Source: Octopus vulgaris (taxonomy: Eukaryota). From it: 64,000 bases of DNA. Shown here in pieces: positions 21,897-57,669 of the stretch. The stretch lies in NCBI GenBank assembly GCA_951406725.2, contig OX597826.1, forward strand, positions 59,768,001-59,832,000, in the 5' to 3' direction. A program made the position numbers and the translations under genes. Numbering within the stretch: position 1 is the stretch's first letter; the number at the start of each line of letters is the position of its first letter. The notes under the pieces were generated by a model. The model saw only the letters and a program-made list of their open reading frames with translations, had not been told where the DNA came from and searched no databases.

Positions 21897-22370
21897 GCAA
21901 TGAGCTGGCAGAATCGTTAACACGCAAGGTGAAATGCTTAGCGGTATTTCGTCCGCCGTTACGTTCTGAGTTCAATTTCCGCCGAGGTCCACTTTACCTT
22001 TCATCCTTTCGGGGTCGATAAATTAAGTATCAGTAACACACTGGGGTCGATGTAATCGACTTAATCCGTTTGTCTGTCCTTGTTTGTCCTCTCTCTGTTT
22101 AGACTCTTGTGGGTTGTAAAGAAATAGGTATTTCGTCTGCCGCTACGTTCTGAGTTGAAATTCCGCCGAGGTCGACTTTACCTTTCATCCTTTCGGGGTC
22201 GATACATTAATTACCAGTTTTTCACTGGAGTCGATGTAATCGACTTAATCCCTTTGTCTGTCCTTGTTTGTTCCCTCTATGTTTAGCCCCTTGTAGGCAA
22301 TAAAGAAATAAGAATCTTTAGCATACCGGACAAAATCTTTAGAAACATTTTCTGTCATTTGGTTCAAATT
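21897..22370 (+). mobile_element. SINE family B with internal 184-bp tandem duplication
   Basis: GGTATTTCGTC at 21943 and 22127. Confidence 0.88.
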
Positions 22371-33297: not shown

Positions 33298-33446
33298 ACA
33301 CACACATACACATACATACACACACACACATATATACATATACATATACACATACATATGTGCATAATCAATAATCATGTCTGGGCGATAGTCCCGTGGA
33401 TCCCACGTAGTCTTGGTGGCAGCCCTACCATTTTATGACATAAATT

Positions 33447-34050
33447 ATGTTTTCAGAGGCACAAGTAAAATTATCACTCAGACGTAGATGCACACTGCAT
33501 CGACAACAGATTGCATTCCCAGAATACAGAATGATACCTTTTAGTGAGCACATTGAGAAATGCGCAAAGCAACTACTACCACAATTTTTAATCTTTCCAT
33601 TTTACCAATGTGCTATCGGATCATCAACACAAACTAGACTAAACAAGGAAACATTCTTCATTGAAAAGTACAAGCCCAGACTTAACCATTCCAACATAAT
33701 TATACAGAGAAATTCACCCCAAAGGAAAGGAAAAAAATGTTAAGCGATTATCTCCCTTACACCGGTAGAAATCACTTATTACATCCCCTTATTTAGAACT
33801 CTTTTCAACATAAACATAACTTAACTCGTTAACATAAACATAACGACGTAAGAAATTTGAAAAGCTAAACGTGAAACCGGTCTTTCTTCTAAACTATGTA
33901 ATTGTAAGAAAAACATTTATAATATTCTTCAGACATATTGACTTATAAATATATATTCTTTAACCTTTTAAAACAAGCCTTCTGTAGTTTTTTCACTTTT
34001 TACTATTTTCTATATATTCAACCACGTGCTTTCACAAACCAACTTCCTTA
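33447..34050 (+). mobile_element. Penelope-like element 3' end: GIY-YIG endonuclease C-terminus, 3'UTR and decayed minimal hammerhead
   Basis: ORF 33447: LRRRCTLHRQQI..HIEKC..IFPFY..TRLNKETFFIEKYKPRLN (GIY-YIG R, H, E, PxLN motifs); AAGAAA..TTGAAAA..GAAACCGGTC-TTTCTT at 33850-33888; ends in (TA)n. Confidence 0.8.
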
Positions 34051-45682: not shown

Positions 45683-46440
45683 ACGGCGCGCTGGCAGAAT
45701 TGTTAGTGCGCTGGACGAAATGCTTAGCTTCTGAGTTCAAATTCCGCCAATGCCGACTTTGCCTTTCATCCTTTCGGAGTCTATTAAATAAATACCATTT
45801 GCACACTGGGGTCAATGTACTCGACTTGATCCGTTTGTCTGTCCTTGTTTGTCCTCTCTGTGTTTAGCCCCTTGTGGGTAATAAAGAAATAGGTATTTCG
45901 TCCGTCGCTACGTTCTGAGTTCAAATACCACCGAGGTCGACTTTGCCTTTCATCCTTTCGGAGTCTATTAAATAAGTGCCAGTTGCACACTGGGGTCAAT
46001 GTACTCGACTTGATCTGTTTGTCTGTCCTTGTTTGTCCTCTCTGTGTTTAGCCCCTTGTGGGTAGTAAAGAAATAGGTATTTCGTCCGTCGCTACGTTCT
46101 GAGTTCAAATACCACCGAGGTCGACTTTGCCTTTCATCCATTCGGGGTTGATAAATTAAGTATCAGTAAAACACTGGGGTCGATGTAATCGACTAGTCCC
46201 CTCCCCACCAATTTCAGACCTTGTGTCTATATGAGACTTCCTTGTCTCATGAGGACGGCGAGCTGGCAGAATTGTTTGTACGCGAGACAGAATGTTTAGC
46301 AGTATTTCGTCCGTCCCTACATACGGAATTCAATTTCCGCCGAGGTCGACTTTGCCTTTTATCGCTTCCAGATCGAGACAATAAGTACCAGTCAAGTGCT
46401 GGGGTTGATTGATTTCGACTAATACTCCTCCACACACAAA
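45683..46440 (+). mobile_element. SINE family B concatemer (184-bp period) plus a further copy at 46254
   Basis: AAAGAAATA|GGTATTTCGTCCGTCG junctions at 45892 and 46076. Confidence 0.88.
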
Positions 46441-53127: not shown

Positions 53128-53188
53128 AGGCGTAGATGTCGCTGTGTGGTAAGTAGTTTGTTTACGAACCACATTGTTCCGGGTTCAG
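53128..53188 (+). mobile_element. SINE family A head only, fused to the downstream element
   Basis: GCTGTGTGGTAAGTAGTTTG..GTTCCGGGTTCAG, then abrupt switch. Confidence 0.8.
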
Positions 53189-53551
53189 GTTTTTGGCTAA
53201 TTTTGAAAGAAATATCGGCAATTTATTTGCTGCCAGAAAGTACCGCACTTGCGCAGGGGATTTGGAAAAATTATATCATATAAACACGAGGCATGTTCTT
53301 TATCGCCTCGTGTCTATATGTGAGCCCTGGCATCCTGCTGACGAAGCAACACCAGTTGTAAATTAAAATTAATTTATTTTATTTACATAAGATTGCAGAA
53401 ACTATGCATAGTCCAGGAAAGATAGGGTAAATGTTTTTAATTTTCATTTCCTTTCAGAATTGCAACTATTAGTGGCTTGGAGTTTTAACTACTCTTTCTA
53501 GTGAGTCAGATGTCCTATTATGGTCATCTCTTATGTGTTTAAATGCACACT

Positions 53552-53558
<7 letters not shown>
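53187..53558 (+). mobile_element. Retrozyme-like element subfamily B, partial unit
   Basis: Highly similar to 56975-57350; ends in (TC)n(TA)n. Confidence 0.8.
53333..53418 (+). ncRNA. Type I hammerhead ribozyme (GUC cleavage)
   Basis: Stem I TCCTG/CAGGA; CTGACGA 53338-44; stem II (A)GCAA...TTGC(A); GAAA 53398-401; palindromic stem III ACTATGCATAGT; cleavage after C53413. Confidence 0.83.
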
Positions 53559-53618
<60 letters not shown>

Positions 53619-53619
<1 letters not shown>

Positions 53620-53740
53620 GAGGGGTATATGAAATGTTTAGATTCTTCAAGGCCTTTGAGCCTTGAAATCTTGTACCTTCATCAGAAGTCTTGTACCATG
53701 TTGTGCTTTTTTGAGGCTCAAGACTTTTCATACACCCCTC

Positions 53741-53741
<1 letters not shown>
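53619..53741. mobile_element. Tiny mariner-type MITE
   Basis: TIRs CGAGGGGTATATGAAA / TTTCATACACCCCTCG within (TA)n. Confidence 0.8.
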
Positions 53742-53791
<50 letters not shown>

Positions 53792-54299
53792 TGAGGGGCA
53801 ATTGTACTCCATGATTTAGATAATTTTTTTGTTCTCTACCAAAAGCTACATGTTGCACCACGATTCTCTGTGGGTCACAGTCTCAATTTTAAAAAAAATG
53901 TAGATAGACACATGAACTTCAACATGATTCTTATTTCCTCTCTCGAACAATTATATAAATTCTGTTATTTATACATTCAGTGCTCAGTTTCATCAGAATC
54001 TTCCGCAAATGTTCGTAATTTCTCCTGGGAAAGTTTTCCCATGAATGACATTGAGTATTTTCATGTCACAATGCGAGAACTACGTTGACACTTTGGGGCT
54101 TCTGCTGACATATTTTGTTCCCTAAAAAGGTAACGAAAGTGATATCTTCGGTTACAACTTGGGACTTTAAATTCTCCACAGCCTTTTTTCGTTCATTAGA
54201 TATTTTCTATCTATCTCATCCTCATGTATTAGAGAAGTGTAACTTTCGGAATGCTATTTGATGTAATTCCCTTGAATTCCAGTGAATATATTCCCCTTA

Positions 54300-54800
54300 A
54301 TATCATCATCGTCTTCAATTTTACGTGGAACCTATGCATCCATAAGGATTCTGTGGTATTCAGTGTTTTTCTTCAAACACGTTGTGGAAATAGATTAGTA
54401 CAGCAAATCTTGCATCGCATGGAAGATCCTTGGGAAATTCAATATTCCTCAGGTGTGTCATATAGGATGTTACTCTTCACTTTTAGGAAATATTTGAAGT
54501 GTTAAATTTTCTCGCCGTCGTCTGGGAAACGTCTTCGTAGTGAAAGATTATGACATTCAAATGTTTATTTTCTGCACATTAGGCTTTTCTTTCCAGGAAG
54601 CTGCTCATATTACCGTTTCTGTAGACGATTGTATTTGATGTCAGAATCTTTTAAGGTTTTAATATATACGATAAGGATTTCTTCGATGAAGCAATCAAGT
54701 ATAACATATGTTGATATCATTGCTGGTAATACAAATATACGGTGAGATAGGATCTTTTATAAAACGATATATGATGGCACATTTTATATCCCTATATACT
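54300..54800 (-). mobile_element. Possible very decayed Penelope-like fragment
   Basis: Broken minus-strand translation NLK.ILTS...SLRRRF...LQIFP resembles the PLE at 33447. Confidence 0.3.
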
Positions 54801-55836
54801 TATCTTTGGGCACTTAATGTTTGCTCACAGCACACTAGATATAATTTCATTAATATCAGAGCATAGGCAAATCTTCGAATTAAGATTAAAAGTACTGACT
54901 TGACAGAAATCTTAGGACTTACTGCTCTTTAAATCACGCTTGTATAAAGTCATGTATACATGTTTGTATATGTATGTATGAATATATGCATGCTGTGCAA
55001 AAACATCATCATTGCATATGTGTAACTGGTTCGATTTTTCCAACTGGACACATGTATTTATTTTAATATCTACCCACACGCACGCACACGAATAGAGTTT
55101 TGAATAGACACATGCATACATATATATATTCATATGTCTGTGAACGTTTGTGTGTGTGTGTGTTAGCAAGGGACTGTATGCGATTATGTCTGTGACTGTA
55201 CCTGTAACTCTCATGCGCCAAACTTCTGCATAGATTTACACATTTTTATATTTCCAATAATAGCTTGTAATTGGAATTTCCTAATGAGCCGGGTCTTGTC
55301 TGGCTTTATAAAACTTTTCTCAAGAGTGTTGCAGAGACAGCAGGTCAAAAACCACGTATCCCAATATTTATAGGTTCAAATCTAAATGTATAGTTCAAGT
55401 GAAGTAACTACTGATTTCTCATTAGTTCTGTAGAAACGTTTACTTTCTCTTTTATCTTTAACATTATAGTAACGTCTACTGAGCACATCATTTCCACTAT
55501 TGTGCATACATTCTTTGGCTGTCTGGCACTGTGCAGCATACATTTATTCTTTCTTTATTTTGCCTACATTTTACACATGTTCTGACAATAACATTCCACC
55601 ACTATTATTTCTAGATATATGCATGCGTGTGTGTGTGTGTGTGTGTGTCTGTGTCTGCGTGTGTCTGTGTATGTGTGAGAGTGTTCATGTGTGTGTATGA
55701 GAGAGATTGAGTGAATGAGAGCAGAGTATATTCGTAAGTATGTCTTATTCTTAGCTTCTTTACATACATATATATGTCTGCATACTGAATAGATAGATAC
55801 ATAGATAGACGGATAGATAGATAGATAGTTAGAAAG

Positions 55837-55896
<60 letters not shown>

Positions 55897-56306
55897 TTAT
55901 ATATAAAGAGAAAGAGATATAGGGAGACAGAGAGACAGAAAGAGAGAAAGAGAATGAAGGTAGTAGGGGTTTTAAAAGTCAGGAAGAGAACAAGAAAAGC
56001 AAAGGACAGAGTGAATAACCAGAAAAAGAAAGAGAAAATATATTGTGTGATTGGGAAAGTGGAAAATGCAAAGATAATAAGGTTGCCCTGAAGAAAGAGA
56101 AACTGCAGTCCATTTAGTTACATAGTAATTTTCACATAGCAACTAGTTGTTTAGTGATGGTAAAGAGGACATGTTGTTAATAAGCGATAAGAAAGCAGTA
56201 CATCAATGAATTCCTATGTGATAACATATACGCTATACTGTGTGAAAGTGTTGATATTATCTCGTGAATGCTTTCACATAGCTACAGGAAGAGTGATGTA
56301 TGTGTA

Positions 56307-56393
<87 letters not shown>

Positions 56394-56880
56394 TGTGTGT
56401 AGGTGTGTACAGAAGGAGACAATAAGATGTGACGCGAGATGCTAGATGTGAGACGTGAGATGTGAGATATATTTTATTTATCAATCAATAAAGGTCTCGT
56501 TTATATTTAGAAATATCAGCGGCGTTGAAGGCAGTAGTGATCGTAGTGGTTATGCCTTCTATGGTTAAGGTGCTTGTTTCGCAAACAAGCCAATCCCTAG
56601 TTTGAACTAGTCACACGTAAATGAAAGACGAAGGGTATTTCTGTCGGTGTTCATAATTTCATGTTAATATATTTGTAATATTATTGAACCTACAAAACAA
56701 AACATGAGATTCGGACTAGTAATAGAAGGTCTCGTTAGCTCCTAACAAATAAATAAAATTTATAAACTAAAAATGCACATTGAAACATTTTAACCTGATT
56801 TTAAATCTAGATGGATATACCAGTATGTGTTTCTCTTTCTCTTTATCCGTATATATAAGAAAAAAAAAAAAGATTCAGTT

Positions 56881-57471
56881 GACTAAATGTTTTCCTTCTC
56901 GCTAGACCACTGGTAGGAAAGAGTTTTTCTATTAATTTTTCCTGCTACCCAAAGATTTTTTAATTAATGATAAAAGGTTTTTTGGCTAATATTGAAAGAA
57001 ATATCGGCAATTTATTTACTGCCGGAAAGTTCCGCACATGGGCGGGGGATTTTGAAAAAAATTATAGCATATAAACACGAGGCATGTTCTTTATCGCCTC
57101 GTGTCTATATGTGAGCCCTAGCATTCTGCCGACGAAGCAACTCCAGTTGTAAATTAAAATTAATTTATTTTTGTTTACATAAGATTGCAGAAACTATGCA
57201 TAGTCCAGGAAATATAGGGTAAATGTTTTTATTTTTCATTCCCTTTCAGAATTGCAACTATTAGTGGCTTGGAGTTTTAACTGCGCTTTCTAGTGATTCA
57301 GATGTCCTATTATGGTCATCTCTTATGTGTTTAAATGTACACTGTATTTTTCTATGAGTAATATATAGTCTATCGACTAAATTTTTTCCTCGCTAGACCA
57401 CTGGTAGCAAAGAATTTTTCTATTAATTTTTTCTGCTACCCTAAGATTTTTTTAATTAATGATAAAAGGTT
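56881..57471 (+). mobile_element. Retrozyme-like element subfamily B, ~1.2 units (491-494-bp unit)
   Basis: GCTAGACCACTGGTAG at 56901 and 57392 (period 491); ~95-bp terminal direct repeat; ends at TATATA. Confidence 0.82.
57124..57210 (+). ncRNA. Type I hammerhead ribozyme, U4C core variant
   Basis: TTCTG-CCGACGA(57129-35)-...-GAAA(57190-93)-CTATGCATAG-TC-CAGGA. Confidence 0.72.
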
Positions 57472-57669
57472 ATATATACATTATCGATAATAACACAGCT
57501 GAACAAGTAGGTTGCTATTTGGCGTGGTGGAGACTACTCCCCCAAAATGTCGGATGTTAGAGAATCTGTGTCATAGATGGGCGAGACATATCACATGGCC
57601 CTTTGCGAGAGCAAGATCCACTACTCCAACGCGTATATCTGATTTTGCAAGTAAGCTCCTCATATATAT

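Follow-up and report, generated by a model that had tools for sequence, protein, structure and literature searches.

An old hammerhead-bearing tandem repeat in the Octopus vulgaris genome is a non-LTR retrozyme copy, probably mobilised by a Neptune-type Penelope-like element

Hammerhead viroids and viroid-like satellite RNAs are small, self-paired, non-coding RNAs that carry hammerhead ribozymes. Canonical Penelope-like elements (PLEs) have been described as elements with a single ORF. Non-LTR retrozymes, known from mussel, coral and axolotl (Cervera and de la Peña 2020, PMC7229834), are AT-rich tandem repeats that do not code for protein and carry a single type I hammerhead in each unit; they are present as thousands of dispersed copies in several subfamilies per genome, together with PLEs, and their mobilisation by PLEs was proposed in that paper. 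Li, Clavereau and Pollet (2026, bioRxiv 10.64898/2026.07.22.740005) describe retrozymes as non-autonomous PLE derivatives. Among PLEs, a layout of reverse transcriptase (RT) and endonuclease with a Cx4Cx2C motif is that of Neptune and Nematis (Craig 2021, 10.1101/2021.04.23.441226), and the lizard PLE PAc uses two internal start sites with extension of both strands (Frangieh 2024, PMC11167929). The enzyme that moves animal retrozymes, and the origin of PLE tails and inverted arms, are open questions in this literature.

The window analysed here is a 64,000-nucleotide stretch of O. vulgaris contig OX597826.1. Its positions 56881–57471 hold an old, decayed copy of one branch (subfamily B) of a repeat family that belongs to this known class, the non-LTR retrozymes, and that resembles the mussel, coral and axolotl elements in all the traits listed above. 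It differs from them in its longer units (457–499 nt, against ~170–400 nt) and in a stem II of 55–80 nt. The octopus family is known here from genomic copies; retrozyme circRNA belongs to the systems of PMC7229834. The copy and its relatives in the window comprise the following features.

56881–57471, plus strand: subfamily B copy, a 1.2-mer of the type I hammerhead repeat with a period of 491–494
56881–56969, plus: its 5′-truncated partial unit
56970–57462, plus: its one full unit
57004–57026, plus: hairpin H2 (CGGCA/UGCCG), in which subfamilies differ by two-sided changes
57067–57110, plus: hairpin H4/H5 with CGAGGC (57078) and GCCTCG (57096), inner helix conserved, outer helix covarying
57124–57209, plus: predicted type I hammerhead
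57124–57128, plus: 5′ strand of hammerhead stem I
57129–57135, plus: hammerhead core CCGACGA (U4C)
57136–57189, plus: long stem II with an A-A at its base
57190–57193, plus: GAAA of the hammerhead
57194–57203, plus: palindromic stem III CTATGCATAG
after 57205, plus: predicted cleavage position
57206–57209, plus: 3′ strand of stem I, CAGG
57290–57440, plus: 3′ module (H10, H11, H13, H14)
57290/57389, plus: H10
57300–57321, plus: H11
57366–57379, plus: H13
57403/57434, plus: H14
near 57348, plus: upstream fixed end E1
near 57455, plus: downstream fixed end E2
53190–53561, plus: second B copy, 93% identical, 5′-truncated and ending at E1
53338–53344, plus: canonical core CTGACGA of that copy, with GAAA at 53398 and predicted cleavage after 53413
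748–1249, minus: inverted arm of a subfamily A insertion, with an E1 end into (TA)n
1248–1789, plus: direct arm of that insertion, with an E2 end into (TA)n
1456–1462, plus: core CTGAGGA of the direct arm, with GAAA at 1531 and predicted cleavage after 1546

A sequence-only reading had described the repeat as a 1.2-mer with a period of 491–494 bp, diverged from subfamily A but retaining its order of helices. The period was confirmed: 56881–56979 recurs at 57375–57471 with 91% identity over 100 bp, the offset being 494, 491 or 492 across indels. So was the relationship to A, since 322 of 534 columns (60%) were identical in a global alignment whose score of 345 lies far above that of 200 shuffles (152 ± 13), showing the two to be homologues. 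The motifs it listed are all where it had placed them; the helices drawn from them fared less evenly. The pair CTAGTGAG/CTCGCTAG had been assembled from halves belonging to different copies (53498 and 57389), and the copy at 56881–57471 has CTAGTGAT at 57290 in this position, but a G-C pair is kept there in 35 of 38 aligned units. The AGATGTCC/GGTCATCT helix contains a U-U mismatch in B, and columns 391/404 are unpaired in 18 of the 38 units. The CGAGGC/GCCTCG stem is conserved, but without any two-sided change. A and B had been said to end at almost the same point; this copy, however, extends ~10–14 nt beyond E2, the usual B end, and is followed only by ATATATAC. The two departures from the hammerhead consensus that had been pointed out are both real: a basal A-A in stem II runs through the B lineage (17 of 30 motifs), and U4C (CCGACGA, 57129) is private to this copy within B (1 of 30). 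Elsewhere in the window, 21943–22310 and 45729–46194 hold tandem 184-bp units, 87–91% alike, which apparently form one repeat family.

The 2.8-Gb genome gave 2,162 matches to a pattern made of the 3′ half of the ribozyme plus AGGGTAAATG, and none to the reversed pattern. Copies are dispersed over most large contigs; tracing their variants separated them into A, F, C, E, D and B and, later, G, a minimum of seven related subfamilies in all. The tree of subfamilies is ladder-like, with D, E, C, F and A splitting off serially. Most B copies showed 80–93% identity (best 40 of 2,743 candidates) and most A copies, which lie in arrays, 97–100% (best 40 of 1,473). Identity within subfamilies was 0.96 in A, 0.95 in F, 0.93 in E and D, 0.88–0.89 in B and 0.87 in G; these are upper figures, since the copies sampled were top-scoring. 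From its lower internal identity, B is read as an older burst and A as a young one, B being one older rung of the seven-subfamily series. Tandem arrays reach ~7 units per arm in A; B copies mostly have 1–2.5 units. The family thus consists of short tandem repeats, from dimers to multimers, dispersed in the genome, with low GC, no coding frame and no LTR, PBS or PPT (the last two by informal inspection). No frame of at least 120 aa could be traced to the units in the loci L061–L090, and the repeat sequence is AT-rich. A start-codon role for GGTAAATG was rejected, the ATG being replaced by ACG in parts of D and B. Some PLEs retain an intron in the pLTR; an intron candidate here (GTAAAT..TTTCTAG, 73–78 nt; 57221–57293 in this copy) has GT and AG motifs that are both also explained by pairing, and no GT-AG joint was present in four contig sets, where joint-free fragments are uninformative. 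The contigs of these four runs, guessed to be RNA, contained fragments of the family, mostly of the 3′ half and none spanning a unit; they are strandless, and in them circles are indistinguishable from tandem DNA.

The equal length of A and B units had been taken as a sign of selection on size, and this was not supported. Unit length ranges from 457 to 499, with medians of 490 in A, 484 in F, 474 in C, 489 in E, 470 in D and 489 in B, and there was no compensation of length between segments either across six subfamilies (p = 0.25) or between A and B (p = 0.34). Given the shared ancestry, the spread of medians (470–490) and the lack of segment compensation, the equal length of A and B is best read as common descent.

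By eye, each unit contains one type I hammerhead with a conserved core, laid out as stem I, CUGANGA, a 55–80 nt stem II, GAAA, a palindromic stem III, UH and stem I. Rfam reported no hammerhead at gathering score in the whole window, or at E ≤ 10 in 53150–57500, probably because of the long stem II; a large hammerhead family is thus missed by Rfam, which in the squid genome paper gave 235 hammerheads (PMC6962438). A canonical core together with an intact 3′ part was found in 105 of 111 A motifs and 21 of 30 B motifs. U4C is the sole core read in C (4/4) and E (22/28, the other six not being parsed); in G the core reads UUGAUGA and stem III is CCATGG. B2 and F have a mismatch at the base of stem II, as does the axolotl Amex2 family (PMC7229834). 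In all seven subfamilies stem III and its loop together form a fully or almost fully self-complementary sequence, a property also of hammerheads that act as dimers (PMC6765202). Forcing the hammerhead fold is predicted to cost 1.5–5.2 kcal/mol. The genome also contains another type I hammerhead family, unrelated to this one (core CTGAAGA, with a stem II rich in G), in (TA)n-inserted copies with inverted arms (L112:5551–5960; also L056, L193 and L217); in L193 it directly abuts a unit of subfamily F.

Linear units folded with z scores of −3.8 (B) and −6.6 (A). Five units folded as circles gave z from −3.4 to −8.3 (12 shuffles each); both strands were stable, the plus strand folding lower than the minus strand. 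In 38 real full units a 64-pair structure was 94.7% paired, with two-sided changes at 20 pairs, against 35–44% paired in slid controls. RNAalifold missed hammerhead stems I and II owing to gaps, and both were counted from core anchors. As this structure came partly from the same alignment, three further covariation tests were performed. The first compared pairs defined in A only, plus the anchor-defined ribozyme stems, with columns matched for base and variability. The 13 ribozyme pairs had 13 two-sided changes against 8.2 in the null, and without B the figures were 13 against 5.7 (1 of 3000 null draws); here the B2 majority at stem I pair 1 is A-C, through a tie of two paired variants, while the 38-unit count takes this pair per sequence. 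The 76 other A-only pairs showed no significant excess of two-sided changes (12 against 9.7; 520 of 3000 draws) and had fewer breaks (44 against 52; 13 of 3000). The second test compared branch types: of the events that altered a pair, 15 of 59 were two-sided on internal branches, and 4 of 105 on the terminal branches that follow insertion (p = 6 × 10−5 for the named pairs, 0.015 for non-ribozyme pairs and 0.054 for A-only pairs). Change per column was 0.68 in paired and 1.14 in other columns on internal branches, and 0.94 and 1.14 on terminal branches. The third test was out of sample, subfamily G having been fetched once the structure had been fixed. Its 61 pairs showed eight two-sided changes, against 4.6 expected under a strict null (54 of 5000 draws) and 1.7 under a looser one (0 of 5000); the non-ribozyme pairs contributed six, against 3.2 (108 of 5000). 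In this alignment helix H1 was out of register, which counts against the structure, and three stem III pairs were omitted.

Covariation is therefore strong in the hammerhead stems and moderate elsewhere, on the branches between subfamilies. These results support selection on the fold while the element was mobile, with the firmest case for the ribozyme. The sequence-only reading had proposed selection on structure and size as expected for a replicating RNA: structure is upheld by these tests, size is not, and there is no evidence of replication in the viroid sense. An autonomous viroid-like circular RNA, replicating from RNA to RNA by rolling circle under selection on structure and size and occasionally reverse-transcribed into the genome, could also have a fold stable on both strands, a hammerhead, covarying helices and homogeneous arrays, and RNA-RNA replication was raised as a possibility for the mussel retrozymes (PMC7229834). 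We nevertheless consider it very unlikely here: inspection of the aligned units by eye revealed no ribozyme on the minus strand, unit size is not fixed, the family resembles a retrotransposon in its ends, targets and ladder of subfamilies, and, as a weaker point, metagenome contigs gave 0 motif matches. The family also differs from hammerhead viroids in being genome-encoded and in its predicted fold, which is branched rather than rod-like. PLE-driven retrotransposition, to which the insertion anatomy points, also passes through RNA and so selects on the RNA fold; it is the likelier context for this selection than RNA-to-RNA replication.

The ends of the inserted copies support a retrotransposon origin in more detail. 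Copies have two fixed 3′ ends ~105 nt apart, E1 after H11 and E2 after H14, both running into (TA)n: (TA)4 follows E1 in 92 of 104 ends and E2 in 93 of 109 (185 of 213 in total). The 5′ ends show no excess at the cleavage site; 171 of them are evenly spread, with six in its bin against ~8 per bin. In a sample of 145 de-duplicated insertions, biased toward high-scoring copies, 79 were single-armed and 66 carried an inverted second arm. Single-armed insertions ended at E1 (36), at E2 (37) or elsewhere (6). Among the two-armed ones, 55 combined E1 with E2, one had E1 twice and ten had one end that could not be classified, so that 55 of the 56 classifiable insertions have one end of each kind (binomial p = 8 × 10−16); all seven two-armed insertions among 15 G loci do so too. 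In six subfamilies the spacing from E1 to H13 is 10–17 nt. E1 keeps this spacing in B, although an insertion there moves it 17 nt farther from H11 (three B ends, by pattern); its position thus appears to be measured from the downstream structure.

Spread by recombination of a DNA-level satellite or minisatellite, whose hairpins would be due to chance or relevant to DNA, would fit tandem arrays of up to ~7 units per arm. Dispersed copies with fixed 3′ and random 5′ ends, covariation that tolerates G-U, a complete hammerhead core, the lower folding of the plus strand and the reversed-pattern control (0 against 2,162) largely refute such an origin, which is extremely improbable. The same ends match those of PLEs: 5′ truncation, fixed 3′ ends, an optional tail at one end, an inverted 5′ arm and a microsatellite or AT-rich target. 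By analogy, the one-arm-per-end pattern reads as the PLE 'tail' signature. Neptune-type PLEs and PAc (Craig 2021; PMC11167929) also share with the family their partial tandems and the order of hammerhead, first start site and second start site. They differ in that the retrozyme has no ORF, the whole element consisting of pLTR-like units, in the tail, which here is structured and ~105 nt long rather than 30–40 nt, and in stem III, of 3 bp here against the minimal PLE hammerhead. Inverted two-armed insertions with two fixed ends are seen here, and the word 'inverted' has no occurrence in the main text of PMC7229834. A literature search outside subscription papers found no account of this family, or of tails or inverted arms in retrozymes.

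A PF01541 search found many GIY-YIG frames in the genome (best 150 of 6,136 candidates), and these belong to PLEs, with an RT, a Cx4Cx2C motif and a C-terminal endonuclease; on this domain and motif content the autonomous PLEs are labelled Neptune-type. In one young PLE family a 781-aa frame is intact in many copies that are nearly identical to each other. In this PLE (L117:818–4518), a second, upstream frame of ~479 aa overlaps the start of the 781-aa RT-endonuclease frame. Within the window, a fragment of a PLE endonuclease end lies at 33377–33686, where matches on both strands suggest an inverted PLE remnant. Autonomous PLEs end in (TA)n, and a tail of 30–50 nt may or may not be present; inspection of three inverted copies (L103, L118 and L127) showed one tailed and one untailed end in each.

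A possible link is offered by one locus (L026), where the pLTR arm of a PLE, without a tail, and a fragment of PLE ORF are joined to a B arm ending at E2. The junction has an 8-nt microhomology, AAAATTAT, with no (TA)n in between, and the PLE family involved is about as old as B (84–88% against 80–93% identity). This arrangement is consistent with a template switch in one insertion event. It could alternatively be a microhomology deletion between neighbours, as both elements target (TA)n and adjoin elsewhere (L075, L189 and L212). A second, similar fusion (L183) has two tailed ends, against the one-of-each rule.

On this evidence, the copy at 56881–57471 is an old non-LTR retrozyme copy, likely a non-autonomous PLE copied into (TA)n by the RT and GIY-YIG endonuclease of Neptune-type PLEs in the same genome. 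Arrays would be transcribed into multimeric RNA, which the hammerhead, perhaps as a dimer formed through palindromic stem III, would cut to monomers that a host ligase may circularise. The PLE protein would bind the 3′ module (H10–H14), likely the region that its RT reads, and nick both strands of a (TA)n target. cDNA would be primed at two internal starts, at E1 from one strand and at E2 from the other; copying would pass the ribozyme site, for up to ~7 units, on a circular or uncut multimeric template, and the two cDNAs would be joined head to head. As only fold-keeping RNAs would be copied, compensatory changes would accumulate between subfamilies while inserted copies decay. A stricter version, for which the chances seem about even, is that the H10–H14 module, kept through seven subfamilies, gives two RT starts ~105 nt apart, at each of which the PLE always primes one target strand, with copying then going around a circle made by the ribozyme. 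Several observations weigh against PLE mobilisation. No pLTR homologous to the unit was present in 60 PLE loci of four to five families, the tail is longer than that of published PLEs, L183 breaks the one-of-each rule and L026 may be a deletion product. The mosaic arrays considered below are not explained by a single monomeric circle, and two-sided changes outside the hammerhead were not significant for A-only pairs.

The arrays bear on the template. Across 20 young A arrays (117 units), differences amounted to 0.56% within arrays, 0.63% across arms and 2.8% between arrays. In many arrays (L209, L210, L216 and L220) variants are fixed in every unit, or in almost every unit, of the two arms, which suggests that a single unit was re-amplified, as would happen by rolling on a circle. 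Other young arrays are mosaic (L206, L217 and L218), L218 carrying alleles fixed in other arrays; these could reflect mixed templates, or later exchange or assembly error. In L214, L217 and L206 variants recur every second or third unit, which dimeric or trimeric templates might explain, as could assembly error. These data concern a reading that differs from the preferred one in the template step only: a non-autonomous PLE copied from linear, uncut multimers, with the hammerhead kept for another step and circles playing no part in mobility. For PAc, uncut RNA was the main substrate and hammerhead mutants still inserted (PMC11167929); the sharing of variants among some units of mosaic arrays, the L218 alleles and the variation of cores by lineage (U4C in C and E, UUGAUGA in G, the stem II mismatch in B2 and F) also favour uncut templates. 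Variants fixed across both arms, however, need re-amplification from one unit, and the hammerhead stems are the most strongly covarying part, so that copying from uncut multimers is a real but clearly lesser possibility.

The retrozyme class being known already, surprise is limited; what is new is unusually clean genomic evidence of the integration mode. Li, Clavereau and Pollet (10.64898/2026.07.22.740005), whose units of 51–972 bp cover this family, worked mostly on vertebrates and concluded on the same mobilising partner because of pLTR homology and co-occurrence; the present argument comes from insertion anatomy and a fusion, with no pLTR homology. The octopus genome offers a near-perfect one-of-each end rule (55/56, plus 7/7 in G) and a structure-defined candidate binding module. 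It also has a young substrate in subfamily A (97–100% identical copies) and an intact protein from a young PLE, so that the in vitro assay published for PLEs is directly applicable. If true, a rule of one start per strand would account generally for the tails and inverted arms found in PLEs, and Neptune-type PLEs would be the enzyme source for animal circRNA retrozymes, sequence homology being unnecessary.

Hammerhead-like motifs were also noted in or beside several PLEs. The PLE pLTRs of L240, L248 and their relatives contain a minimal hammerhead in which the 3-8 pair is naturally exchanged (G3-C8; core GUGAACA) and stem III is CCGG. A candidate with core UUGAUAA (U3-A8) and a poor stem I lies in the pLTR of the young PLE family (L117:5400–5460, L102 and L112). 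Beside PLEs in L094 and L125, the minus strand carries a hammerhead-like CTGATGA ... GAAA CTCGAG TT. Finally, in another PLE family (L118:4770–4850), a minimal hammerhead can be made out by eye as TGAAC, CCGAAGA (U4C), GAAA, GTAC, TA and GTTCA.
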